DNA of 64,000 bases. Origin: Flaccisagitta enflata. Its lineage: Eukaryota. Both the position numbers and the translations under genes were made by a program. Where the stretch lies: assembly GCA_965153355.1 (NCBI GenBank), contig OZ231126.1, positions 35,774,001 through 35,838,000 of the forward strand, in the 5' to 3' direction. Of this stretch, positions 27 through 61,983 are shown piece after piece (the stretch's first letter is position 1; each line of letters begins with the position of its first letter). The notes below the pieces were generated by a model, which was given only the letters and a program-made list of their open reading frames with translations, was not told the origin of the DNA and did not search any database.

Positions 27-11164
<11,138 letters not shown>

Positions 11165-12268: not shown

Positions 12269-13330
12269 TAGATCTTTACTTTCCAGTTTCCACACTTCTT
12301 CCACTCCTGAATAATGCGTCAACCTCGTCAATATGTGAACATCTTGCGTCCATTTTTGTCTTTGTTTTAATGTGGTACGACTTGTATCAAGGCTTTGACA
12401 TCGATAGGTTCCGGTTATGTTCTTTTTTTATTGTCGGCTGAGATTTTAAGGGGGTTCGCGAAATGCCCAAGAGAACAAGTTGAACTGAAGGCTTTCCATG
12501 AAAACTTTTTTAACCTGTCACGTAAGTCATCTTTCTGCCTCAATACAGCATTTCTTTTTACCACAATATTGTTTTTTGGGCAATTGTTGAACCCCCCATT
12601 TGGCTTTTTCACTGACCTGTACCACAATCTGTGAATTTTCGATTCTAGTCATTGCTAATCGTGATGTATGACTCAATTGAGATTGACCAAGACGCGTGCA
12701 TCCTTTTTTTAAAAGTGTGCATCACGTCTCATGAAATTACCCCACCACAAATTGTATGAAGTTAAGTTTCGCTTTTTCTTTGTCTCGCGCGAGTGTTATG
12801 ATTTTTAAAGCATGAAGATATCACCACCACGTCCATGGGATCATTCTATGTATCTACCAAAAAAGAATATATTCTCTCCTTTTTTGTTCTATTTTCTGTT
12901 TTTGACTCAAGTTTTATTTTAGAAGATATCTTGTTGTATTTTTCTCACAATGAAAATAAGACTTGTTCGAAGAGGTTCTCCAAACCACCATGGCGTTGAA
13001 TCATTTTGTGAATTTGTGTTCTTCAATGGAAAGCTTTGGGCGTTATCGAGTAAGATGGCGCCGCTGTCTTGGTCACCTCATGTGGCACCTCGTTGTAAGA
13101 TCCAGGTCCTAGTTCCAGTAGTTAGAATCATGAATAAAACGCTCACTGAGAACAACATGATGATAGGCTTTGTGACACATCAAATCTGATTACATTTCAC
13201 TTCCAATGCCAAGGTGACTGGTTTCAAATATTTGATTTTTTCCTTGAAGTAGTAATTTTAGCAAGTCTGCTTCAGTGAAGTCAAATCAAGGCTGCTGAAG
13301 ACAGCAAATCCTACCTTATTGATTTATTTA

Positions 13331-13816
13331 TTTTGGGGTTAAACTCGGAATGGATGTTTGCAAGTTAGTTTTGCTAAATGGAAAACTAGGAGTGATGCGT
13401 GTAGTAACTAGTCAGTGAGGGCTCACAAGGCCCTCTTCCATATATTTTTCAGTTTGGGTATAGTGAGGGATATTGTTCCACCTGTCATACTACTCAGTAC
13501 CTTGGATAAGAATGTCCGGCGGTCGCATTAAGCTTGACCTCGATTCTATCCTTCAAGGGTATGGTTTCTTAACAATGTTACCCTCGGGTGATTTGTTGAA
13601 TTTTGGTCATAAAGGTAACAATCATTAGCCCTTATCTATTTGGTAAGCATTAGTGTTTTGGGGTTAAACTCGGAATGGATGTTTGCAAGTTAGTTTTGCT
13701 AAATGGAAAACTAGGAGTGATGCGTGTAGTAACTAGTCAGTGAGGGCTCACAAGGCCCTCTTCCATATATTTTTCAGTTTGGGTATAGTTAGGGATATTG
13801 TTCCACCTGTCATACT
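13331..13816 (+). mobile_element. Structured non-coding partial-tandem element, 325-bp-unit subfamily
   Basis: 13331-13492 repeated at 13656-13817; ends in ...cctgTCATA; homologous to the 565-bp subfamily; 3' fragments at about 34923-34990, 55057-55130 and 63800-63835 (-). Confidence 0.7.
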
Positions 13817-14122
13817 AAATATCCAGCAGATCCAAAAAGAGAAAAGTAGCAATAACCTGGATTTTTGTCTGTGTTGAAGACTTTGTGCTTGACACCCAGT
13901 TTGACTCCAGGGCAGTTTCGGCTGGAAGACAGGAAGTGAAATCCGCCAAATCGTTCGTCCGTCGAGTAGAAATTAGGACCAGGATTCTCGTTGTACTTTT
14001 GATTCAAATTTCGATAACCCAAAGAATAAGACGGAGGATTGTGAAAGCCTTGGTGGGGAAAGAAGTATCCAACATACTAAAATGTACATCAGACAAACTA
14101 TATTCTTTTATATGTATTCCAT

Positions 14123-26216: not shown

Positions 26217-26331
26217 CAAGACGAACGGAAGTCAAACTGTTCGTTTGTTACTCATCAAACCTTGTATAGAACAGCGCTACGTCGAAGAACAGAGAATGCA
26301 AAAAAGCCCGAAGAAAAGAGCAATAGACGTT

Positions 26332-27645
<1,314 letters not shown>

Positions 27646-28159: not shown

Positions 28160-30275
28160 GCAGGGTTGTGTGACATACATTGGAAAATACAGGGCTGTGT
28201 GACATACAATGGAACAAACTAGGTGGTGTGATATACATCAAAGAATACAGGGCTGTGTGACATACAATGAAGAAAAACTGGGTGGTGTGACATACATAGG
28301 AGAATTCTGGACTGTGCATACTGGAATTCATAAGCTGCCGCTTTTTTTCTATTTGATTTTACCATCATAACAGTCTCTTATGCTTAATTATAAGGAAACT
28401 ACATGCTTAAACATTGAAAATTAGTGAGAAATTGAGGAAGGGAGTTGTTGTCTCTTGGTTTTTGCCTTTCCGCTTAAGCTTTAGAAAAAACAAGGCCAGA
28501 TACAAGGCTACCAAAATCGCGTGCGAGTGGGCAGGGGCCATATTTGAGGTCACCAGACCATTTGGGCAGGAGCAGTGAGGTCAAAGAAATAAAATCATAA
28601 AAAAAAGTAGTGTGACCAACCGACCGACCAACCAACTGACCGACCAACCGGCGGACAAAGCGGGTTGTAGAGTCGCGTGCACGCGACTAAAAGTTCAAAA
28701 GTTTTATTTTTTTCAAAATTATTGAAAGGTGTAGGGTAATACCCCTTTTTAGGCTTTGGCAGCGGCACTCTTCTTTATACATGTGACATACATTGGAAAA
28801 AACTGGGTGGTGTGACATACTAATAATGCTAAGATAGTGACATACTAATAATGCTAAGATAGACTTAGTTATTTTGACTACTAGGGATAGTTGTGATGGG
28901 TCCGAATTAAACACCAGTGAGAGCTTCAAAGGCTCTCATCCTTAAGTAAAGTGGGGTTGAGTAGTAATGTTGTCCAACTTTCATATATTTCAGTACCATG
29001 GTATAGAATGCCGGCGATCCCATATGGTTGATTCTCGATTCTTGCCTGTAATGGTATGGTTTTTAACAACATTGCCTTTGATATCTAGATTATCCTTGGA
29101 TAGCTACATCATCATTGGGTAATTTGTTTGCTATAAATAATAGGGATATGTTGGCTACTGTGCGTCTTTTTATTTTGGGTTTACATGGAATGTTTGAGGG
29201 AATGGTCTCATTCAGTCGAAAGGGTTTTGATTTTAAGTTGTGGGTTGCATGAACCTTTTACAATGGGAAGATCAGATGGATGTGAGGGACTACGCGCCCA
29301 CAGTTCAGCACAATCATCTGGTACTCTTTCTTGTCACTGGTACTTGTAGCAAACAGGTTAAAATTATGGATCTTTTCTTTCTGGTTAGATTGTTGTCTTA
29401 AATTATTTCATGATAATGCTAAGATAGACTTAGTTATTTTGACTACTAGGGATAGTTGTGATGGGTCCGGATTAAACACCAGTGAGAGCTTCAAAGGCTC
29501 TCATCCTTAAGTAAAGTGGGGTTGAGTAGTAATGTTGTCCAACTTTCATACATCGGAGAATTCTGGGCTGTGTGACATACATCGGAAAAAACTTAGTGGT
29601 GTGACATACATTGGAGAATTCTGGACTGTGTGACGTATATCGGAAAAAACTGGGTGGTGTGACATTCATCAGAAAATTCTGGGCTATGTGACATACATCG
29701 GAAAAAACTAGGTGGTGTAACATAAATCACAGAATTCTGGGCTGTGTGGATAATTGGATAAAACTGGGTGGTGTGACATACATCGGAGAATTCTGGGCTG
29801 TGTGACATACATTGGAGAATTCTGGGCTCTGTGACATACATAGGAAAAAACTGGGTGGTGTGACATACATTGTAGAATTCTGGGCTGTGTGACATACATC
29901 GGAGAAAATTAGGTGGTGTGACATACATTGGAGAAAACTAGGTAGTGTGACATACATTGGAAAATTCTGGCTTGTGTGACATACATTGGAGATAACTGGG
30001 TGGTGTGACATACACTGGAGAATTCTGGGCTGTGTGACATACATTGGAGTTAACTAGGTGGTGTGACATTCATCGGAGAATTTTGGGCTGTGTGACATAC
30101 ATTGGAGTTAACTAGGTGGTGTGACATTCATCGGAGAATTTTGGGCTGTGTGACATACATCGGAGAAAACTGGGTAGTGTGACATACACTGGAGAATCCC
30201 GGGCTGTGTGACATACATCGGAGAAAACTGGGTGGTGTGACATACATCGGAGAATTCTGAGCTGTGTGACATACA
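28160..30275. repeat. 29-bp minisatellite with alternating variants, interrupted by insertions
   Basis: tgtgacatacatcggagaattctgggctg alternating with tgtgacatacattggaaaaaactgggtgg; main block 29547-30275. Confidence 0.9.
28848..29550 (+). mobile_element. Structured non-coding partial-tandem element, 565-bp-unit subfamily
   Basis: Period 565 (28861 vs 29426); ends ...aacttTCATA; inserted into the 29-bp minisatellite. Confidence 0.75.
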
Positions 30276-34568: not shown

Positions 34569-35476
34569 TTTTTCTTTTTCTTACCCTTCGCCTTCTCTTC
34601 CTTCCTTCCTTCCTTCCTTCCTTCCTTCCTTCCTTCCTTTCTCTTTCTTCCTTCCAAACCTCCCGAGAGGCATCCAGCTCTTCCGAGTAGCGGCGCTACT
34701 CGCTACTACAAGATGTACAGGTCTGAAAGACATACCAGCCTTAAAAAAATTGTAGGTTGGTGTACCTACCTTATGTCATATTGTCATGCAATACTTTTTG
34801 TCCGCATTTACTGCTTGGCTTTTGCTAGTTGTTGTCTCGGAACTTCGAAATATAATGAAAAGAAAACATATTGTTTTTACTCTTTTTTGAATTAACATTT
34901 GTTCGTTAGTACTAACGTTAGATTTCACAAGGCACTCTCCCATTTGTTTCAGTTTGGGTAAAGTGAGGGATACTGTTCCACTTGTCGTATGAACATGTAT
35001 GTATACTTTTTTTTTATATAAGAGACCAGTTTATAAGAGACATGAGCCTGAGATTTGCCGAAATTTTAAAAACAAAATAAGAGAATGCCCAGGCTGAGAT
35101 TCAGCTTCGGCCATTTTTGAAAACAATTTTATTTAAGTTTCTTATCTAAAAAATGAATTTGATTCAAATTTTTCACAAACATAGGTTGTTTATCTTTAAA
35201 AATAACTTCTTCTCTTAGTTTGCCTATGAAATCAGGCATTATATCAAAAAAAATATAACATTTATCAAGTTTAAGAAACAACTGCTATAAATAAGGTATT
35301 TTTATACAATCTAGACATTTATGAACATCAAACAAATTAAGAACACTTTAAGAGAAATTCAGGCTGAAAACAGACAAAAATTTAAGAACACCCAGGCTGA
35401 GTTCAAAAAAGCTGTCTCCTATAAAAAAAAAAGTGTAATGCATAATGGCACATTGCACGCACGTTCTTTCATTAAA

Positions 35477-35623: not shown

Positions 35624-36034
35624 CTTGTCCTATTGTTATCGTTGTTGCTGTCGTTTTTGTTGCTACTTATATTGTTCTAATGTCTCTGTTACTGTTTTGT
35701 TGATACTATTTTTGTTGTTTTTTAAATTAGTTTTCCGCCTTAGAAGCGACGATATAACCCGCTACGTCGGTCGGTCGGCCGGTTGGTTGGTCCAACTGTC
35801 GTCCAGACCGTCACACTTTGCTTCTTTGATGTTCACGGGTTCGACACATTTATCTAATTTCGTCAAAAACATTGCTTTAAAACTTGTGTCAAGTTTAAGT
35901 TAAACTCGTGTCAAAAGTTAAAACGGGCAGTAGACATTGTTGTTCATTTGGATTTCCTGAAGTGCCAGAGCAAAGCGCCCTCTAATGATCAGGCCAATTT
36001 TCTTCATTCTTTGAAAAAAGATCATTAATCAATA

Positions 36035-36210
36035 CAGTCGGACCCCGCAATAACAGCCCCGCTTTTAAAGGTCCCCCATCAATAAAGGTCAACATTATAA
36101 GGTCCAAAATGACAGTTTCTAATGTGATTTCACCTCTCTTTAAAGGTGACCCTGAGATAAAGGTGTAAAAACTTCAGTCCCAATGGGACCGATGAGGCGG
36201 GGTCCTACTG
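36035..36210. mobile_element. 176-bp TA-flanked MITE (second copy inverted at 54877-55052)
   Basis: cagtMggaccccgc TIRs; the two copies are reverse complements. Confidence 0.85.
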
Positions 36211-36212
36211 TA

Positions 36213-37213
36213 CACTTTTTTTTTATGAGAACCATGTTTATAAGAACGTTAGGCTTAAAATCCTCATAAATTTAAGAATAAGCTAAGAACATTGGAAAGT
36301 TTCATTTTTTCAAAAATTTAAGAACTTTAGGCTTATAATACTCAATAATTTAAGAATTTGCTAAAAATATTAGAAAGTTTCAGTTCTTCAATAAAGATAG
36401 CCATTTTTGGTCTACGTTTATAAGAGGACCACACTTAGAAAACTACGGAATATCTTTTGCTTTTGACGCTGCTTGCTCCTACCGTCTATAATTTGACTCT
36501 TATTCTCGTTCATCTCTCGAGCCTTGAAATATTGATTTGATTGTTGATTTAGGGTTAGGGATTGGTAGGGGGTAGTTTAGGGGTAGGGGAAGGTGGGGAG
36601 TTAGGGGTAGGGTTGGGTTTAGGGTTAGGGGTCAGGTTAGATTTAAGGTAAGGGGTAGGGTTGGGTTTAGGGGTAGGGGAGATTTAGGGGTAAGAGGGGT
36701 TTAGGGATGGGGGTTGTTGGGGGATTAGGGGTAGGGGAAGGTGGGGAGATAGGGTTGGGTTTAGGGTTGGGTTTAGGGGAAATGTTGGGTTTAGGGGTAG
36801 GGGGGGTTTAGGGGTAGGGGTAGGAATGGTTGAATTTGTTGATTTTATTTCTTATATGTACCAGTGCACACTGTTTGGTGAAAAAAAACTGTTACAGACG
36901 CTAAAAAAAGTGTGGTCCTCTTGTAAACCTTTGCCTGATTTTTTTGTTGTTTTTATACAGCATGTTTCATTTTATTCTTATTATTTTTAACTTCACTTAA
37001 AACATTTACACCTGCTGCTTTGTCGTTATATTGATATCTTCCTTCATTTTCTCTCAGAAGACAAACTTAGATTAAGAACGTTCTTACTTAAAGGTTAAAA
37101 ACTGCTTTAGTATTAGGAACAATTTAAGAACGTTTAAGCTCTGAAACTGTTTAAAATTTAAGAATATTGAAGGCTTGCTCAAAAAGTGACGTTCTTTTAA
37201 GAAAAAAAAAGTG
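36213..37213. mobile_element. CACT(T)n-ended MITE family member (others 35004-35435, 40785-41099, 46181-46758)
   Basis: TA-cact(c)ttttt..ataag / cttat..aaaaa(g)agtg-TA termini in four related elements. Confidence 0.75.
36409..36935. mobile_element. Nested MITE with G-rich TTAGGG/GGTAGG core
   Basis: TIR gtttataagaggaccacac / gtgtggtcctcttgtaaac; telomere-like repeats at 36549-36825. Confidence 0.7.
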
Positions 37214-40900: not shown

Positions 40901-41899
40901 TTATGATGATATTTAAAAAACATTAAGAAAACACTTAAATTTTAATGTGATTTTATAATTTCTAAGTAAATATCATGAAAATAGTTAATATAGTATTTGA
41001 AATTAATAACACTTTAAAAACGATGACGGTTTTTTTTGGCCTTGAAAATAAGAGCATGAAGCCCTTGAAAAAAAAAAGACGTTCTTAAAAAAAAGAGTGT
41101 ACACCGTGTTTTTTTATCCTCACAACGAATTGTATTCAATAGCCAGTCACTGGACTTCTAAATCCACCGAAACCACTCGAGGCACAGCGCTGGTGCCTAA
41201 AAAGGAAGTAGGGAACGGCGAGCGAGGCATAGAACACCGCGCCGAACAGCAATGAAAGGCGGACACCCCCCCCTCTGGATAGCCCCCCAAAGAAAAACCA
41301 AAAAACCCATTCTGGGGACCCCAAGAACTATCATCTAGGATGTCTTGGCTACACAAAACAACATCAGACTAAATCATTTGAAAGCAAAATTTGGGAAAAA
41401 GTCACTTTTTATGCAAAAATCAAGCATTTTTTGCCATATTTGGCACTTTCATGGTTCATACAGCTTCCAAAACTTTAGAAAATATCTAAAAAGTGTAAGA
41501 ATAGCTAATGTGTAACTGGTTTTACCTTTTCAAGCTAGTTTGGATGGATATTTCAAAGATTAGAGCAAAAAAAATCATTTTAAACCAGAAAATTGAGTTT
41601 TTTTCAGCATTCTTTTGCTTAAAATCATTCAAGCTACATCAATAAGCCTGTAAACTATAAAAAGTGTGTGGGAACAGTTGAAATACATATGGTTTTACCA
41701 TTTTAAGTTAGTTTGAAGAAATATCTAACTCTCAAAAGCTAAAAAATCTTTCATTAATTTATGAAATTAGATTTTTTTAATATTTCATAGATCTAATCTG
41801 ATTTCAAATATATTTAAAAATACAGAATATTGACATATATATAAGAATATATGTAATAGTGAAATGTATGTTTATGTACATTACTGTATGTAATTTATA

Positions 41900-42716
41900 T
41901 ATGAAAGTTGGACAACACTACTACTCAACCCTACTTTACTTAAGGATGAGAGCCTTTGGAGCTCTCACTGGTGTTTAATCCGGACCCATCACAACTATCC
42001 CTAGTATCCAAAATAACTAAGTCTATCTCAACATAATCATGAAATAATTCAAGACAACAATCCAACCAGGAACCAACCAGGAAAAAATCAATAATTCTAA
42101 CCTGTTTGCTACAAGTACCAGTGACAAGAAAGAGTACCAGACGATTGTGCTGTTTTGGACCACACATCCATCTGATCTTCCCATTGTAAAAGGTTCATGC
42201 AACCCACAACCTAAAATCAAAATCCTTTCCACTGATTGAAACCATTCCCTCAAACATTTCATGTCAACCCAAAATAAAAAGATGCAAAGTAGTCAGCACA
42301 TCCCTATTATTTATAGTGAACAAATAACCAAATGATGACGTAGCTATCCAAGGATAATCTAGATATCAAAGGCAATGTTGTTAAAAACCATACCATTAGA
42401 GGCAAGAATCGAGAATCAACCATATGGGATCGCCGGCATTCTATACCATGGCACTGAAATATATGAAAGTTGGACAACACTACTACTCAACCCTACTTTA
42501 CTTAAGGATGAGAGCCTTTGGAGCTCTCACTGGTGTTTAATCCGGACCCATCACAACTATCCCTAGTATTCAAAATAACTAAGTCTATCTCAACATAATC
42601 ATGAAATAATTCAAGACAACAATCCAACCAGGAACCAACCAGGAAAAAATCAATAATTCTAACCTGTTTGCTACAAGTACCAGTGACAAGAAAGAGTACC
42701 AGACAATTGTGCTGTT
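41900..42716 (-). mobile_element. Second copy of the about 565-bp-unit element (1.45 units)
   Basis: tatgaaagttggacaac at 41900 and 42462; reverse complement of the 28848-29550 element. Confidence 0.75.
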
Positions 42717-42892
42717 GTGCTATTTTTCTTGCATGAAATAGTTTTGAAGGATTGATAATATTTCAGCATGAATATACTTAAAAAGCTCAAATTTACTGTT
42801 TTTAAGTCATTTTTTTAGCTTTTAAGAGTTAAGTATTTCTTCAAACTTACTCAAGATGGTAAAACCATACAAATTTCAACTGTTCCCACACA

Positions 42893-43435
42893 CTTTTGGG
42901 CAGCGGCCCCGAAGGGGCCGATGACCTATGCTCTCACACATATGGGAGATTCCTCCTCTCCTCCTTCTCCTTTCTCTCCTTGTCCTCCTCGAGGCCCCTC
43001 CTCTGTTCTCTAATCCCAGCTGATGCTCCGCTCAAATCCCAGCCTGAGGCTCAAATCCCAGCCTGGAGGCTCAAATCCCAGCCTGGAGGCTCAAATCCCA
43101 GCCTGAGGCTCAAATCCCAGCCTCGAGGCTCAAATCCCAGCCTGGAGGCTCAAATCCCAGCCTGGAGGCTCAAATCCCAGCCTCGAGGCTCAAATCCCAG
43201 CCTCGAGGCCCAATTCCTGGTCCTGAGGCCCAAATCCTGGTCTCAAGGCCCAAATTCTGGTTTCGAGGCTCAAATCCCAGCCTCCAGGCCCTAATTCCAG
43301 CCTTGAAGCTAAAATAAAAACAGCATAGGTCATCGGCCCCTTCGGGGCCGCTGCCCCTCTTAGCACCACACACCCACATACACTCACATAGGGGCAACGG
43401 GTACCGCTGACCATCTGACGCTTTTGCGACTATTT
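42893..43435 (+). mobile_element. HINE-like family B element with internal 20/21-bp array
   Basis: gggcagcggccccgaagggg / inverse subterminal repeat; unit ggctcaaatcccagcctgga; interrupts the right TIR of the 41264-43830 element at a T run. Confidence 0.8.
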
Positions 43436-44425
43436 ATAGTTTACAGGCTTATTTATGTAGCTTGAATGATTTTAAGCAAAACAATGCTGAAAAAAACTTG
43501 ATTTTCTGGTTTTAAGTGATTTTTTTTGCTCTAATCTTTGCAATATCCATCCAAACTAGCTTGAAAAGGTAAAACTAGTTACACATTGGCTAATCTTACA
43601 CTTTTTAGAAATTTTCTAAAGTTTTGGAAGCTGTATGAACCATGAAAGTGCCAAATATGGCAAAAAATGCTTGATTTTTGCAAAAAAAAAGTGAGTTTTT
43701 CCCAAATTTTGCTTTCAAATGATTTAGTCTGATGTTGTTTTGTGTAGCCAAGACATCCTAGATGATAGTTCTTGGGGTCCCCGGAATGGGTTTTTTGGTT
43801 TTTCTTTGGGGGGCTATTCAGAGGGGGGTGCGGAACAATCTTTCATAGAACAAGTAGGCCAACGATGCGTCCTCTTTGAATAAATTCTTATGAATAAATA
43901 TTTTCCTGATGAATGAATGAATGAATGACATTTATGAATGAGTGAATGATATGATGATTAACTTATCCAATGAGTGCTACAAATACAGATTTTGTAGCAC
44001 TTTTCTTTTGGTAAAATTGTGGGTTTTGATGTTTTTGAGGTTAGCCTTACTGACAGACGAACAGACCAATAGACCAACAGACATAATCTCTTATAGAGAA
44101 TGCACTTCTTGTCGTTCCATCTCAACATTCTGATTCCGATTTTGATTCTATGGGGTTGAGAAAGGTGAGATTATTTTTAGGTGCGACAAAGCACCTCTTC
44201 TGGCTGTGTCCGTCAGTTGGTTGGTCGGTCGGTCTGTTGGTTGGTTGGTCGGTCGGGTACCGCATTCGTTCGACAATCTACACGTCGCACCTTATTGGCC
44301 TACTTGGCCTTGTTATTTTGGGAAAATGTTACAGTTTATGTCGTCTAAACTTGGAAATACGGGGGAGCTCATAACCTGAGCATCAGTACAATAAAAGGAC
44401 TGATATTTTGCTGGTGTAATGTTTT

Positions 44426-45928: not shown

Positions 45929-47395
45929 TTACAAATATCTTGGGGTCATAATAAGCAACAAAGGAAAAAAACATAATACTGTTTATATATGTTGAATGGC
46001 GCATTATTGAGCACTCAATCAATCAATCAATCAATCTCTATCTGTCTTTTTCTTTTCCTCACTTTTTAGAGGCGTCCGTCAGGATACACCTCTATGAAAG
46101 GCCAGAGAGGGTCCATATGTTCGTCCGCCCTTCCCTCCGTCAGTCCGTCGGACAATCTATCCGTCTGTCCATTTCGCCTACACTCTTTTTTTTTTATAAG
46201 CACCTCGTTTATAAGCACGCCCAGCCTCAGATATTGGGAAAATTTAAGCACATAGCTAAGCACGGTCCAGGCTGAGATTTCTAATTTGAAAAAAAAAATT
46301 TGGTAAATTTTGAAAAATATGCCATTTTTTTTAGATTTTTGATTAAAATTTCACAAAAACCAACAGCAACTTTGATAGAAATTGTAATCATTTATAACAT
46401 CAATCTATCAGTACATTCAGGATTTTGATACTGATAGAAATAATTTGTTTTCTAATAATATTTAAAAATACTATTAATATATGAAAGTAAGACAACGTCA
46501 GTGAATGATACTATATACTTTTTTATGCAAAATACATTCATTACTGTATTTTATACTATACTTAATTCTATACTATACAACACTGTATTGATGTTTTCTT
46601 TACCCTACTGCGTACTTTGTTCTTGACTGAATAGGATAATTACTTACTGATAAATGATAAGCACGCATTTAAGCACATTTCAGCCTCGAAAATGAGATTT
46701 TGCTAAGCACGCTCAGCCTCAGCCGAAAAATTAGCGTGCTTATAAAAAAAAAAGAGTGTATTCTAAAAATGCATTTCTCGACACCTTTCGAGCGTTGCAA
46801 GGCCCCAGACCGGATCAAACAACGATAAACGACGTTTATTAAAGGTGTTCTTAAGAGTTGGTCGGTGCGTCCAACTCCCCCCCAATATCGCACATCGTAG
46901 TTCAATCCAAACAATGACACTTTTTAGTTGCGGATATGTACGCAACTCTGTGAAAGACTTTGTCTGTCCATCTGTCCGTTGGTCAATCAGTCCATCCATC
47001 TGTCCGTTGGTCAATCAGTCCATCCGCCCGTCCGTCCCTCAGAATCGTGTTGAAAAGTGTAAAAACGCGCAATTGAGTCTCTGTATGTGTGAGTGTCTGA
47101 GTGAGCATGGGGTGGGGAAGGTTATGCATCGGGATTTTATACCCCTGCCCACACGTCCGCAACGATACTGTCACCCCGCGTCACTTGTTTCGTTGTTGTT
47201 TTCTTTTGCGTTCCATTCCCGACTCGGCTTCTTTCTTTCCGTTCAAAAGAAAAAGAGAGATTGATGAATAATCAAGAAAGGCGGATGTGGGGTTTCCCCG
47301 TCTTCTCTCCTGGCATGCCAAGGAAGGAGGAACGTTGTAAATGTTTAAGACGGAGACGAAAGATCTGTCAAGTTGAAATGTTTGAAAAGAAAGCG

Positions 47396-47692: not shown

Positions 47693-50600
47693 AGACCCAG
47701 ATCAGACCCAGCTAAAGAAAATTCCCATACCCAGCCTCTAACCCCCCAGCCACCACCCCAAAAGGCTCAAACCGCCTTCACCGTGACCCAGATAAGATCC
47801 AGCTAAAGAAAATTCCCATACCCAGCCTCTAACCACCCAGCCACCACCCCAAAAGGCTCAAACCGCCTTCACCGTGACCCAGATCAGACCCAGCTAATAA
47901 AAATTCCCATACCCAGCCTCTAACCACCCAGCCACCACCCCAAAAGGCTCAAACCGCCTTCACCGTGACCCAGATCAGACCCAGCTAAAGAAAATTCCCA
48001 TACCCAGCCTCTAACCACCCAGCCACCACCCCAAAAGGCTCAAACCGCCTTCACCGTGACCCAGATCAGACCCAGCTAAAGAAAATTCCCATACCCAGCC
48101 TCTAACCACCCAGCCACCACCCCAAAAGGCTCAAACCGCCTTCACCGTGACCCAGATCAGACCCAGCTAAAGAAAATTCCCATATCCAGCCTCTAACCAC
48201 CCAGCCACCACCCCAAAAGGCTCAAACCGCCTTCACTGTGACCCAGATCAGACCCAGCTAAAGAAAATTCCCATACCCAGCCTCTAACCATCCAGCCACC
48301 ACCCCAAAAGGCTCAAAACGCCTTCACCGTGACCCAGATCAGACCCAGCTAAAGAAAATTCCCATACCCAGCCTCTAACCACCCAGCCACCACCCCAACA
48401 GGTCGCCCAAGGGCAATATGTGGTCAGCGATACCCGTTGCCCTGCTTTGCATGGTCGTAAATCAGAATGAGAGGCAGGGCAGCGGCCCCGAAGGAGACGA
48501 AGTCCTGTAGAACACAGGGAACTTTCGTTCGTTTGTCCGTCTGTTTGTCCGCCCGTCCGTCCGTCCCTCCCGGCCCTCTCAGGCCAGAAATCTGCCATCT
48601 CAGGCCTAAAATCTGTCCTCTCAGGCCTTGAATCTGAGAGGGCAGATTTCAGGCCTGAGAGGGCAGATTTAAAGCCTGACAGGCAGGTTTCAGGTCTGAA
48701 AGGGCAAATTTCAGGCCTGAGAGGAGAGATTCAAGGCCTGAGAGGGCAGATTTCAGGCCTGAGAGGGCAGATTTTAGGCCTTAGAGGGCAGATTTCAGGC
48801 CTGAGAGGGCCGGGGGGGACGAACGAACGAACGGACAAACGAACGAAAGTCCCCTGTGTTCTACAGGACTTTGTCCCCTTCGGGGCCGCTGCCCAAAAGG
48901 CTCAAACCGCCTTCACCGTGTCCCAGATCAGACCCAGCTAAAGAAAATTCCCATACCCAGCCTCTAACCACCCAGCCACCACCCCAAAAGGCTCAAACCG
49001 CCTTCACCGTGACCCAGATCAGACCCAGCTAAAGAAAATTCCCATACCCAGCCTCTAACCACCCAGCCACCACCCCAAAAGGCTCAAACCGCCTTCACCG
49101 TGACCCAGATCAGACCCAGCAAATGAAAATTCCCATACCCAGCCTCTAACCACCCAGCCACCACCCCAAAAGGCTCAAACTGCCTTCACCGTGACCCAGA
49201 TCAGACCCAGCTAAAGAAAATTCCCATACCCAGCCTCTAACCACCCAGCCACCACCCCAAAAGGCTCAAACCGCCTTCACCGTGACCCAGATCAGACCCA
49301 GCTAAAGAAAATTCCCATACCCAGCCTCTAACCACCCAGCCACCACCCCAAAAGGCTCAAACCGCCTTCACCGTGACCCAGATCAGACCCAGCTAAAGAA
49401 AATTCCCATACCCAGCCTCTAACCACCCAGCCACCACCCCAAAAGGCTCAAACCGCCTTCACCGTGACCCAGATCAGACCCAGCTAAAGAAAATTCCCAT
49501 ACCCAGCCTCTAACCACCAGCCCACCCCAAAAGGCTCAAACCGCCTTCACTGTGACCCAGATCAGACCCAGCTAAGAAAATTCCCATACCCAGCCTCTAA
49601 CCACCCAGCCACTTCCCCAAAAGGCTCAAACCGCCTTCACCGTGACCCAGATCAGACCCAGCTAAAGAAAATTCCCATACCCAGCCTCTAACCACCCAGC
49701 CACCACCCCAAAAGGCTCGAACCGCCTTCACCGTGACCCAGATCAGACCCAGCTAAAGAAAATTCCCATACCCAGTCTCTAACCACCCAGCCACCACCCC
49801 AAAAGGCTCAAAACGCCTTCACCGTGACCCAGATCAGACCCAGCTAAAGAAAATTCCCATACCCAGCCTCTAACCACCCAGCCACCACCCCAAAAGGCTC
49901 AAACCGCCTTCACCGTGACCCAGATCAGACCCAGCTAAAGAAAATTCCCATACCCAGCCTCTAACCACCCAGCCACCACCCCAAAAGGCTCAAACCGCCT
50001 TCACCGTGACCCAGATCAGACCCAGCTAAGGAAAATTCCCATACCCAGCCTCTAACCACCCAGCCACCACCCCAAAAGGCTAAAACCGCCTTCACCGTGA
50101 CCCTGATCAGACCCAGCTAAAGAAAATTCCCATACCCAGCCTCTAACCACCCAGCCACCACCCCAAAAGGCTCAAACCGCCTTCACTGTGACCCAGATCA
50201 GACCCAGCTAATAAAAATTCCCATACCCAGCCTCTAACCACCCAGCCACCACCCCAAAAGGCTCAAACCGCCTTCACCGTGACCCAGATCAGACCCAGCT
50301 AAAGAAAATTCCCATACCCAGCCTCTAACCACCCAGCCACCACCCCAAAAGGCTCAAACCGCCTTCACCGTGACCCAGATCAGACCCAGCTAAAGAAAAT
50401 TCCCGTAACCAGCCTCTAACCACCCAGCCACCACCCCAAAAGGCTCAAACCGCCTTCACCGTGACCCAGATCAGACCCAGCTAAAGAAAATTCCCATACC
50501 CAGCCTCTAACCACCCAGCCACCACCCCAAAAGGCTCAAACCGCCTTCACCGTGACCCAGATCAGACCCAGCTAAAGAAAATTCCCATACCCAGCCTCTA

Positions 50601-51273
50601 ACCACCCAGCCACCACCCCAAAAGGCTAAAACCGCCTTCACCGTGACCCAGATCAGACCCAGCTAAAGAAAATTCCCATACCCAGCCTCTAACCACCCAG
50701 CCACTTCCCCAAAAGGCTCAAACCGCCTTCACCGTGACCCAGATCAGACCCAGCTAAAAAAAATTCCCATACCCAGCCTCTAACCACCCAGCCACCACCC
50801 CAAAAGGCTCAAACCGCCTTCACCGTGATCCAGATCAGACCCAGCTAAAGATAATTCCCATACCCAGCCTCTAACCACCCAGCCACCACCCCAAAAAGCT
50901 CAAAACGCCTTCACCGTGACCCAGATCAGACCCGGCTAAAAAAAATTCCCATACCCAGCCTCTAACCACCCAGTCACCACCCCAAAAGGCTCAAACCGCC
51001 TTAACCGTGACCCAGATCAGACCCAGCTAAAGAAAATTCCCATACCCAGCCTCTAACCACCCAGCCACCACCCCTAAAGGCTCAAACCGCCTTCACTGTG
51101 ACCCAGATCAGACCCAGCTAAAGAAAATTCCCATACCCAGCCTCTAACCACCCAGCCACCACCCCAAAAGGCTCAAACCACCTTCACCGTGACCCAGATC
51201 AGACCCAGCTAAAGAAAATTCCCATACCCAGCCTCTAACCACCCAGCAACCACCCCAAAAGGCTCAAACCGCC
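47693..51273. repeat. 91-bp tandem satellite, about 34 near-identical units, interrupted at 48399-48894
   Basis: Unit cccagatcagacccagctaaagaaaattcccatacccagcctctaaccacccagccaccaccccaaaaggctcaaaccgccttcaccgtga; period 91 (e.g. 47881 to 47972). Confidence 0.97.
48399..48894 (-). mobile_element. HINE-like family B element with 21-bp array, inserted in the 91-bp satellite
   Basis: Same subterminal repeats; unit aggcctgagagggcagatttc; satellite resumes in register on both sides. Confidence 0.85.
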
Positions 51274-52290
51274 TGGGCCTGCTGCGGGACAACTTGGATG
51301 GGAGGGGGCAGTATGTGGTGTATGGGGGCTTTGAGTCAGAAAGGGATCAGGTGAGATGTGGAGTCCCTCAAGGCTCAGTTCTTGGCCCACTGTTCTTCCT
51401 GTTGTATGTCAACGACATGGTGAGGGCGTGTCAGGGCCTTGATCATGTCCTTTTTGCAGACGACACTAACATATTTGCTGAGGGTAGGGACCCCAGCTGA
51501 GCTCTTTGGGAGGGTAAACAGGGGTCTGGGGGAGCTCAGTCGGTATGTCTATTTTGGCGGACCTGGGGGGAGGGAGCCACCAGAAGGGGGGTTAGAGATA
51601 GGGGGTGAGCAGGTCAGGAGAGTGGAGGTTCTTTGGGATGTTGGTGGACGGGGGGGGGGTTGAGGTGGACTGGGCACATTGAGCAGTTCAGGGGGATGGT
51701 GGGGCGCCTTCTGGGGGTATTGGGAAGGGCGGGGGCTGTCCTTGATGGGCGACGTCTCCTTTCACTCTATAATGGGCTGGTTCTCCCGCACTTGCAGTAT
51801 TGCCTGATGGTGTGGGGAGACCTAAAGGAGGGGCGGAACCTGACACTGGGGGGGGGGCCTGGGCAGGTACCAGAAAAGGTTTGCTGGCAAGAAGGGGCGG
51901 TACCATGCAGACCCGCTTCTGGCCCAGCTATATAGGCAGCAGCTTAGGGTTCACGCCTGGCAGTTCTGGAATGGACGGCTTCCAGAGAACCAGGCAACTA
52001 TGCTGGGGAGAATTGATGGGGTCCCTGGGTATGGGACTAGGGCGGCAAGGGCGGGGCTTTTCCTGTCAACGAGGGACCACAGGTCGGTGGGGTATAGGGT
52101 GCCCAAGGAGTGGGCGGCGATTCCAGAGGGGCAGAGGGGGGTTGGGTCTCTTGGGGCGTTTAAATGGAGGTCGAGGGCTGGGTTTCTGTCTTCATATGCT
52201 GGGTTTAGGTGTTCGGGGGGCTGTGGCATCTGTCCTTGAGTTGAGGGTGACATGGGCACGTGTCTCGGTGGTGTGGTTCAATTGGTCTTG
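51274..52290 (+). pseudogene. Decayed, 5'-truncated GC-rich LINE fragment (RT C-terminal half and start of 3' UTR)
   Basis: GVPQGSVLGPLFFLLYVNDM, LFADDT, LYNGLVLPHLQYCLMVWG spread over frameshifted ORFs. Confidence 0.88.
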
Positions 52291-54385: not shown

Positions 54386-55154
54386 GTATTTATTGATTCT
54401 CTATGCAAATTTGTCATTTATAGTAGATACTAGTCAGGTGATAAAACGTGAAAATTTTGATTTCAATACCTTCATCTTTGGAAAGAATGTTAAGTTGTTT
54501 TGAGAGCCGATAAAGACATATCAATTTTTCTGATGGCTATATCAAAAGAAACGCTTTTAGTTGCAAATCGATATTCAGTAGGTTTTTGTTGGATAATAAA
54601 GTTAGATTATTTTCAAACAACAGCTAAAACATTAAAAATTGGAAAATAATCTGATAAATGGTGAATTCTAAAAAATTGACGGCAATTGAACCATCAAATA
54701 TGCAAAATATGTCTCAACCCAAGGTGTAACAACACTTTTACTACAAATATTCAGACAAAATTATCAATAATGAAAAAATTCTCAATTATGCATGGAAGAG
54801 GAATTCCTGCTTAATTTATACCGTGTCTTATGCCATTTCTAGACGAAAAAATATAACAATCCCAGATTTGCACGTACAGTAGGACCCCGCCTCATCGGTC
54901 CCATTGGGACTGAAGATTTTTCACCTTTATCTCAGGTTCACCTTTAGAGAGAGGTGAAATCACATTAGAAACTGTCATTTGGGACCTTAAAGTATTGACC
55001 TTTATTGATGGAGAACCTTTAAAAGCGGGGCTGTTATTGCGGGGTCCCATTGTATTAACTAGCCAGTGAGGGTTCACAAGGCCTCCTTCCATTTATCTCA
55101 ATTTGGGTAAAGTGAGGGATAATGTTTCACGTCCCATTGTTTCATCCGCAAGGT

Positions 55155-60498: not shown

Positions 60499-61972
60499 TT
60501 TTTGCTTATTTTCGATCATTATTTGTTGCATTTCAGCCTAATTTACATGAAAATCAAGGATCAGTAACAAAATTCAGTTTTTGAACCAAGTTCATATTGA
60601 CATGAGCTATCTGATTATGAATGTTTTTGACAAATTTTCTCAATTTTGAAATTGACCTATTTGGCCATCTCTCAAAAAGGAGATTATAGAAACAGCCTTT
60701 TGTACTAGTTAATATGAATACAACAAGGCCGGATACACGGCAATCCAGTCGCGGACGGTTGGGCAGGGGCAGCAATGCAAAAACCACTCGCAATTCAGAA
60801 ATGTGACGGACGGACCGACCGACATGGCAAGGTGTAGAGTCGCGTGTCCGCGACTAAAAATAGCCAAAAACAATCAGGTGTATAAGTTTGGAGTGCATAG
60901 GAGGGCAAACATACTACAAACCCAAAGTGCTTCCAAACTTTTTTCCTAGATACTACCTTTTGTTTTGTCCTTTGTTTTCTTTTTTTTTTTTTTTGCTTTT
61001 GTTACTTCGCTTTTATTTCATTTTATGTGTCTACTTTTTTTGCTTTTGTTCCTTGGGTTTCGTTTGCCGTCTTTTTTTTTTTTTTTGAGTTGTGTAGTGT
61101 TTATCTTTTTTTTTCTACTTTATTCGTATTGGGGTGTGCTTCAAGTATCTTCTAAATATATTCTTCTAAATAAATTCTTCTAAATAAATTTCTAAAGTAT
61201 CTTCTAAAATGAGAGTTTGTCATGCCTTCCTTGTTAACGACATATTGGACATTTGACCAGTATTTAAAGAATAAGCATTGCTATCATTAATATACGTTAG
61301 AAGTTTTTGCTTATTTTCGATCATTATTTGTTGCATTTCAGCCTAATTTACATGAAAATCAAGGATCAGTAACAAAATTCAGTTTTTGAACCAAGTTCAT
61401 ATTGACACGAGCTATCTGATTATGAATGTTTTTGACAAATTTTCTCAATTTTGAAATTGACCTATTTGGCCATCTCTCAAAAAGGAGATTATAGAAACAG
61501 CCTTTTGTACTAGTTAATATGAATACAAAAATAGCCAAAAACAATCAGGTGTATAAGTTTGGAGTGCATAGGAGGGCAAACATACTACAAACCCAAAGTG
61601 CTTCCAAACTTTTTTCCTAGATACTACCTTTTGTTTTGTCCTTTGTTTTCTTTTTTTTTTTTTTGCTTTTGTTACTTCGCTTTTATTTCATTTTATGTGT
61701 CTACTTTTTTTGCTTTTGTTCCTTGGGTTTCGTTTGCCGTCTTTTTTTTTTTTTTGAGTTGTGTAGTGTTTATCTTTTTTTTTCTACTTTATTCGTATTG
61801 GGGTGTGCTTCAAGTATCTTCTAAATATATTCTTCTAAATAAATTCTTCTAAATAAATTTCTAAAGTATCTTCTAAAATGAGAGTTTGTCATGCCTTCCT
61901 TGTTAACGACATATTGGACATTCGACCAGTATTTAAAGAATAAGCATTGCTATCATTAATATACGTTAGAAG
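60499..61972. repeat. Recent tandem duplication of about 670 bp; first copy carries an extra 134-bp element
   Basis: 60499-61303 vs 61304-61972 nearly identical apart from 60722-60855. Confidence 0.92.
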
Positions 61973-61983
61973 ATTCGAGGCCA

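Follow-up and report, generated by a model that had tools for sequence, protein, structure and literature searches.

Short hammerhead-less partial-tandem elements with hairpins at both unit ends in Flaccisagitta enflata: candidate Penelope-like non-autonomous retroposons

Two described systems stand close to the repeat family treated here, which is represented by element e325 in a 64,000-nt stretch of the genome of Flaccisagitta enflata (GenBank assembly GCA_965153355.1, contig OZ231126.1, positions 35,774,001 to 35,838,000 of the forward strand; hereafter the window, with positions counted from its first letter). According to the available part of PMC8557442, copies of Penelope-like elements (PLEs) are 5'-truncated partial tandems, and Naiad and Chlamys PLEs are without canonical hammerheads and prefer microsatellite targets; the same part describes non-autonomous Chlamys elements with pseudo-long terminal repeats (pseudo-LTRs), head-to-tail multicopies and 3' ends in common with autonomous elements, and states that it is unknown how any PLE forms its partial tandems. 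Animal non-LTR retrozymes are low-GC, non-coding, head-to-tail and highly repeated units of 150-450 bp (PMC7229834, available text), and animal retrozymes are argued, in the accessible portions of three sources (bioRxiv 10.64898/2026.07.22.740005; PMC7229834; PMC7761336), to be non-autonomous PLE derivatives moved by PLE enzymes.

Element e325 (13333..13817, plus strand) consists of a non-coding 325-bp unit in 1.49 head-to-tail copies; related elements with a ~565-bp unit (e565) lie elsewhere in the window. With a probability of roughly 0.55, we read e325 and e565 as a superfamily of non-autonomous retroposons that would insert by target-primed reverse transcription, form Penelope-like partial tandems and carry hairpins serving as cis-signals for a reverse transcriptase (RT) supplied in trans. 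This reading is built on the anatomy of the copies, their abundance, the behaviour of their ends and the strand-specific pairing of two hairpins that flank the terminus.

Unit architecture, ends and abundance

In e325, a full unit (13490-13814/13817) comes after an upstream copy that is truncated at its 5' end (13333-13489); self-BLAST gave an internal repeat of 99.4% identity between 13331-13492 and 13656-13817, at a spacing of 325. Element e565a (28848..29550, plus strand) holds 1.24 copies of a 565-bp unit, with TCATA both at the internal boundary (28981-28985) and at the terminus (29546-29550), and repeats internally at 98.6% identity (28848-28988 vs 29413-29553, spacing 565; self-BLAST). 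Element e565b (41900..42716, minus strand) holds 1.44 copies of a ~565-bp unit, has a 5' truncation point unlike that of e565a, and repeats internally at 98.9% (41897-42157 vs 42459-42719, spacing 562; self-BLAST). The initial annotation had proposed partial tandems with 325- and ~565-bp units, and its coordinates proved accurate (repeat identity 98.6-99.4%). Because identity within copies is 98.6-99.4%, as against 90% between e565a and e565b, each duplication arose at insertion and not through later events. The partial tandem layout is present in 3/3 window copies that reach the 5' module.

The remaining window copies are confined to the part upstream of the unit boundary. Element e7527 (7527..7890, minus strand) resembles e565 solely in its final 101 nt (92%), which comprise the 3' module with its hairpin 1 and TCATA. 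Two fragments on the plus strand are 5'-truncated 3' modules of the e325 type, namely 34922..34989, which ends in TCGTA (83.6% over 67 nt), and 55053..55130, which has a 10-bp direct repeat at its edges (82.9% over 82 nt). Copies are dispersed and occur on both strands of the window. Similarity between the 325- and 565-bp families is limited to the surroundings of the boundary (78% over ~83 nt by BLAST; ~190 nt by MAFFT), so the ~190 nt of common sequence claimed in the initial annotation hold for these two families, and for 7527-7890 the claim reduces to the last 101 nt. The unit is composed of a conserved 5' module of ~110 nt, which contains hairpin B, a family-specific middle, and a conserved 3' module in which hairpin 1, ~50 nt and the terminus TCATA follow one another. 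No open reading frame (ORF) of more than 84 aa occurs in any element (the longest stop-to-stop frame measures 84 aa), and inside e325 there is none of at least 50 aa, one 53-aa stop-to-stop frame excepted.

A single 3' end was found, and the 5' boundary is different in each of the six window copies. Five copies stop at TC[A/G]TA or at most 3 nt past it. In e325, a predicted single-stranded stretch (13483..13496, plus strand) contains the fixed 3' terminus TCATA (13485-13489) together with the opening bases of the unit that follows. In a DNA run of the host (X2), 204 + 151 contigs (355) exit the element after 13489 and 13490 into unlike AT-rich DNA; agreement in the flank consensus was low (0.35), which points to many different AT-rich flanks. 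The fixed end TCATA named in the initial annotation is borne out by the five window copies and by these breaks. Flank consensus past 13489/13490 is AT/TA-rich in X2 and also in metatranscriptome contigs X7, which is a bias and no proof. Simple-repeat insertion sites are seen for e7527, which sits inside an (ATTC)n microsatellite (7419-7517 and 7890-7959), and for e565a, which lies within a 29/58-bp minisatellite that is the same on both sides. An A-rich or simple-repeat tail of the element's own is absent from the window copies, which end at TCATA.

The family is a very abundant repeat. On 13250-13900, 15,729 X2 contigs were found; word depth in this run was ~100-200 in the flanks, 3.8-4.1 million in the last 45 nt before the boundary, ~2.0-2.25 million in the 110 nt that follow it and 0.15-0.39 million in the middle specific to the 325-bp unit, these sums not being copy numbers. 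Depth of the element exceeds that of the flanks about 10^3-10^4.5 fold. The 5' module stands at about half the depth of the 3' module, as expected if most copies have two 3' modules and one 5' module. The segments flanking the unit boundary are both the most abundant and the most conserved.

Several local features lie at or beside the copies. At 28812-28862, a perfect 25-bp duplication spans the junction of minisatellite flank and e565a, including the first 16 nt of the element, and may have come about incidentally during joining of the 5' end. A short block (T-run, GGG, TT[G/A/T]A[C/A]) is common to all four families when compared by eye (13654-13690; 29170-29200; 7878-7890 on the minus strand; about 120-145 on the minus strand of the metagenome homologue L009, described below). 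The 5' boundaries of e325 (13333) and e7527 (7890) coincide exactly with this block, which may be a preferred stop or start point. Around the AT-rich e565b insertion region, inverted repeats at 41268-41746 and 42811-43828 (400 bp, 95.5%; 87 bp, 89.7%) look like a foldback-like structure. Directly upstream of fragment 55053, a ~180-bp element with GC-rich terminal inverted repeats (54874-55056; inverted 93% copy at 36031-36213) appears to be the insertion target of that fragment.

RNA structure around the unit boundary

Pairing was counted in an alignment of e325, e565a and e565b (RNAalifold), to which L009 was added for hairpin B; the structures were derived from the same few sequences that were used for counting, effectively 2-3 lineages. 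RNAalifold predicted 47 pairs, of which 7 carry changes in both partners, with 95.7% of cells paired, compared with 38-49% when partners were slid by 1-3 columns. The consensus energy was -40.6 kcal/mol on the plus strand, against -20.2+-3.4 for column shuffles (0/300 as low), and 13/300 column shuffles matched the count of 7 compensatory pairs; column shuffling overstates the significance of both comparisons. The contrast with the reverse complement (-22.6) is robust. Together with 16/99 G.U cells in hairpin B, this strand contrast upholds the orientation of the RNA given in the initial annotation.

The two hairpins flanking the terminus are, as predicted folds of plus-strand RNA, well supported by the alignment. 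Hairpin 1 of the 3' module (13417..13435, plus strand; second copy 13742-13760) has 6 bp and a 7-nt loop; in the consensus its 7 pairs are 100% paired and include one compensatory pair (G-C in e325, A-U in e565), the change from GAGGGC/GCCCTC to GAGAGC/GCTCTC that had been noted earlier. Hairpin B of the 5' module (13497..13562, plus strand) is a 66-nt imperfect hairpin of 25 pairs with the invariant stretches AGAATG, CCGGCG and CTCGATTCT. This is the inner hairpin of the initial annotation, and it came out strongly: 99/99 cells are paired over e325, e565a, e565b and L009 (three lineages), 5 pairs are changed on both sides with L009 included, and sliding by 1-3 columns left 31-50% pairing and 0 compensatory pairs. 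A covariance model of hairpin B (R1) scored 112-119 bits on the same four sequences (e565a, 28981-29080, plus strand, 113 bits; e565b, 42367-42466, minus strand, 112 bits) and found no further copies in the whole window, the best extra hit being 18.7 bits at 46361-46443.

The predicted long-range stem across the boundary is weakly supported. Its proposed 5' strands lie at 13465..13482 and its 3' strands at 13563..13585 (plus strand; 13467-13476 with 13572-13581, and 13479-13482 with 13563-13566). The 14 pairs are complementary in both families and 95% paired, compared with 36-58% when slid, which agrees with the long-range stem of the initial annotation as far as complementarity goes; covariation is weak, with only one compensatory pair, and 167/500 shuffles reach the same covariation, which is not significant alone. 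The stem is used in the minimum free energy (MFE) fold of e565. It is unused in e325 MFE folds, where its 3' strand enters a local hairpin, and it does not appear in the MFE fold of L009, in which the upstream sequence comes from another family and pairs imperfectly (by eye). The earlier proposal that the full fold needs a multimer or circle depends on this stem, the weakest helix. A panhandle in a linear monomer found no support: when a single e325 unit is folded, its 3' region pairs in the MFE structure with another internal partner.

Among the rows listed, 9 common X2 variants (at least 14% of depth) fall within 13417-13585, 4 in stems and 5 in loops or bulges (13442, 13484, 13508, 13553, 13554). 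In each of the four stem variants (13422 C>T, 13482 C>T, 13509 A>G, 13585 C>T), pairing on the plus strand is preserved as G.U; 13422 C>T (37% of X2 depth) retains U.G with G13430 in hairpin 1, and 13585 C>T (14%) retains G.U with G13465.

A conserved core pattern of the element was scanned over metagenome contigs, viral contigs and prokaryote genomes. In the window it matches 3 times, as compared with 0 matches over 100 shuffles. Of 13 metagenome loci, 12 are chance matches and one is a true homologue (L009, 1037 bp), a single unrelated marine contig carrying compensatory changes of its own; viral contigs gave 0 loci, and none of the 118 loci in prokaryote genomes is homologous. L009 also contains, at 318-852 (read on the minus strand), a different element of 1.74 head-to-tail copies of a 307-bp unit (209/227 positions matching). 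This element ends at TGTCAT and is fused directly to an e565-like 5' module at the homologous boundary. Such a mixed boundary, a single case, would be expected if an RT, on reaching the 5' end of a unit RNA, jumped to the 3' end of a second one. A nested insertion was rejected here: the sequence upstream of the 307-bp element is unlike the 3' module, and 196-243/300 shuffles score as well.

Known ribozymes and RNA families were looked for in parallel. Rfam, which the initial annotation had named as a check, gave 0 hits at gathering thresholds in the whole window. At E<=10 on 13250-13900 and 28800-29600 it returned no ribozyme class (no HDV-like, twister, twister-sister, pistol, hatchet or hairpin match), only noise (STnc340; UnaL2, 16.5 bits vs a gathering threshold of 55; snoR64a; PK-SPCSV). 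The hammerhead core pattern CUGANGA...GAAA has 8 matches in the window and none inside the elements, as the initial annotation had found. One match (54910-54959, beside fragment 55053) has 5 unpaired U between core and helix II and was for that reason judged chance. As for a fold like that of hepatitis delta virus (HDV), a 7-bp G.U-initiated helix can be drawn from GTACC, and the rest misfits the double-pseudoknot order (by eye). A likeness to twister, namely the string CGGUCCC in common with published variants (PMC8501958, available part), was set aside, there being no Rfam twister hit.

Metatranscriptome contigs X7 and X8 cover the element and cross its boundary (X8 record 19, 13410-13507); DNA carry-over is possible, and these contigs show neither strand, ends nor circles. 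In a poly(A) RNA run of the host (X23), about 6% of which was examined, 324 reads lie only partly on 13382-13447 and 13712-13777 and continue into unrelated sequence. They come from another transcript with a decayed hairpin-1 fragment and are therefore uninformative on expression of the element. At 13382-13447 the fragment in that transcript measures 30-60 nt and resembles hairpin 1; it carries the variants 13420 G>A and 13430 G>A in 40-50% of reads. At least 13430 G>A would break hairpin 1, since its partner 13422 is unchanged in all X23 reads. Downstream of e325, flank positions 13844-14080 have a metatranscriptome contig depth of 5-11, although their DNA depth is 10^3-10^4.5 below that of the element, and an 88-aa frame lies at 13810-14076 (minus strand); 13844-14080 is probably an expressed exon.

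Competing explanations and window context

For the retroposon reading we infer the following course. Plus-strand RNA would be copied by an RT supplied in trans, with DNA synthesis primed by the nicked target at, or at most 3 nt from, TCATA and running towards the 5' end. Synthesis would then cross the unit start onto a second template unit, reached by a jump to another unit RNA or present in a multimeric or circular template, and would stop at a variable point. This would leave a truncated copy and, downstream of it, a full one, in the pseudo-LTR layout that characterises PLEs. The two hairpins would be the cis-signals that the enzyme needs at both unit ends. The partner is most likely a PLE of a hammerhead-less (Naiad-like) clade; autonomous PLEs encode an RT plus a GIY-YIG endonuclease. 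Classification as a non-autonomous retroelement, already put forward in the initial annotation, is supported by the fixed 3' and variable 5' ends, the lack of any ORF above 84 aa, the high copy number, the AT-rich flanks and the plus-strand constraint.

A number of points weigh against this reading. No autonomous partner was found, the sole RT gene in the window (long interspersed nuclear element, LINE; 1676-5257, minus strand) having no sequence in common with the elements. A target-site duplication is clear in 1/6 copies only (10 bp, directly at both edges of fragment 55053), a 5-bp candidate at e565a (CATAC) being ambiguous with the element end. Self-BLAST showed no inverted e325 or e565 sequence beside any of the 3 tandem copies, and there is no clear 30-40-bp tail at the copies. 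Covariation rests on 2-3 lineages. The examined part of X23 has 0 reads over 13448-13690, boundary included, and no read-end pile-ups, in a poly(A) library that would miss circles. The literature searched contained no description of hammerhead-less tandem units with such structured ends; Dfam and Repbase lay outside this search, and the family may be catalogued already.

Two other RNA-based accounts share part of the evidence. If the element were a short interspersed nuclear element (SINE) dependent on a LINE, with a diverged polymerase III head, a LINE-derived 3' tail and tandems made by occasional template switching of the LINE RT, its short, non-coding, very abundant and 5'-truncated copies and the 3' tail common to several families would be accounted for; the window has a LINE with APE and RT domains, and box-A-like and box-B-like strings occur in the 5' module at roughly the right spacing (by eye). 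This is nevertheless unlikely, given 0 tRNA-like genes by ARAGORN in the window, no tRNA, 5S or 7SL match by Rfam at E<=10 in the two element regions, no A-rich or simple-repeat tail, a 3' sequence of the window LINE that is unrelated to the elements, and partial tandems, unusual for SINEs, in every copy that reaches the 5' module. Should the partner be a LINE, these elements would form a SINE family that is unusual in regularly inserting more than one unit at a time. Distinctly improbable, in our judgement, is a retrozyme-like circular-RNA element, in which a new self-cleaving or host-processed boundary motif (3' module, TCATA stretch and hairpin B) would cut multimers at or near TCATA, after which unit RNAs would be ligated into circles and rolling-circle reverse transcription would yield copies exceeding one unit. 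We hold it just as doubtful that this motif replaces the hammerhead in PLE-dependent 'retrozymes', with unit-length RNAs circularised or used for end-to-end template jumping; were the boundary core a processing or self-cleaving motif, interest would be high. The layout, with its short non-coding units of low GC set head to tail, is that of animal non-LTR retrozymes (PMC7229834, available text), abundance and conservation peak exactly beside the boundary, the terminus is single-stranded between conserved helices, and fusion of the 307-bp element of L009 at exactly the homologous boundary would fit RNA ends defined there. However, there is no hammerhead core and no Rfam ribozyme at E<=10, support for the boundary-spanning stem is weak, the position of the 3' end differs by 0-3 nt, and poly(A) RNA is without boundary reads or end pile-ups, in a library blind to circles. 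Hairpin B, moreover, is a nearly regular helix with small bulges, and its invariant bases lie mostly within helices, so that protein recognition fits better than a catalytic core. Of the term retrozyme-like in the initial annotation, the architecture stands and the defining hammerhead is absent.

At the DNA level, a rolling-circle element (Helitron- or Helentron-like, or reinserted circular DNA) would have its replication origin at the fixed end and failed termination at the variable end. One-ended rolling-circle transposition can yield products of more than one unit with one fixed end, and Helitrons have two fixed ends, 5' TC and 3' CTRR or an equivalent, and a hairpin that precedes the 3' end by 10-20 nt. 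One fixed and one variable end, copies of more than one unit and AT-rich targets are in line with this model, which we still regard as very unlikely. The fixed end of the transferred strand would be its 5' end, that is, the minus strand here, whereas pairing is conserved on the plus strand, as judged from G.U pairs that become A.C mismatches on the minus strand. There is also no 5'-TC and no 3'-CTRR, the end being TCATA; the 5' ends differ between copies, 54 nt separate the hairpin from the end, and no HUH or helicase gene was found among 8 window ORFs tested. That the copies are not mobile at all, being local duplications or satellite fragments alike by chance, is hardly credible: the window is indeed rich in satellites and tandem duplications, but this reading is refuted by dispersed copies on both strands, by the 3 window matches of the core pattern against 0/100 in shuffles, by the homologue in an unrelated contig and by the 15,729 X2 contigs on the element.

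Apart from the elements, the window is repeat-rich DNA with many micro- and minisatellites, and it contains C2H2 zinc-finger ORFs and an XK-related ORF. The LINE ORF (1676-5257, minus strand) is a 1193-aa stop-to-stop frame with endonuclease/exonuclease/phosphatase (APE) and RVT_1 domains, besides a weak match to PHD; a short (ATTC)n tail lies at its 3' end, near 1390-1412, and the LINE is unrelated to e325 and e565. A ~671-bp unit is present at 60499-61975 as two complete copies arranged head to tail (99% identical), which end beside a (CT)n run; the first copy has a ~134-bp insertion (60727-60860) with an (ACGG)-type microsatellite. A 91-bp satellite (47694-51274; about 39 copies, 96-97% identical, GC 55%) is broken by a 21-bp repeat block (48573-48810), and a very long imperfect (GTT)n of about 440 repeats occupies 26329-27644.

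Comparison with known systems

Resemblance to ribozymes at the ends of retrotransposons, HDV-like in R2, RTE and L1Tc and twister-variant at the 5' end of Perere-3 (PMC8501958 and PMC7761336, available parts), is confined to the presence of conserved structured RNA immediately downstream of the presumed RNA start; hairpin B is predicted to form a single long hairpin, which differs in topology from a nested double pseudoknot and from a twister fold, and these ribozyme classes gave no Rfam match at E<=10. The bacterial DRT2 defence system (PMC12039810, available part) offers a conceptual likeness only, in that an RT makes head-to-tail repeat DNA from one RNA unit. SINE/LINE pairs with tails of the stringent type (UnaL2 3' stem-loop, RF00436) are like e325 and e565 in a 3' hairpin upstream of a fixed end, in families with different bodies and in 5' truncation; unlike such SINEs, the present elements have no detected polymerase III head, no repeat tail, a UnaL2 score of 16.5 vs 55 bits, and regular partial tandems. 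Retrozymes carry a type I hammerhead in every unit and range from dimers up to long arrays (PMC7229834, available text), whereas e325 and e565 have none and measure 1.24-1.49 units in the window, with a fixed 3' end.

The Naiad and Chlamys clades of PLEs spread well despite having no hammerhead of the kind found in other clades. The e325/e565 family is small, extremely abundant, hammerhead-less and partial-tandem, with defined hairpins at both unit ends, and for these reasons it may be a compact candidate system for studying how partial tandems form. Its fixed TCATA end gives a defined site at which RNA ends, circles and template jumps can be sought, and its hairpins are candidate cis-signals for RT.

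Differences from PLEs are the missing adjacent inverted copy and clear 30-40-bp tail, both frequent but not obligatory in PLEs, the unit length of only 325-565 bp, and the conserved structured 5' module, of a kind not found in the available part of PMC8557442. The likeness to Naiad and Chlamys PLEs extends to a full copy immediately preceded by a 5'-truncated one, a fixed 3' and a variable 5' end, inconspicuous target-site duplications, insertion into microsatellite or AT-rich DNA, the absence of a canonical hammerhead, and the head-to-tail multicopies of their non-autonomous forms.

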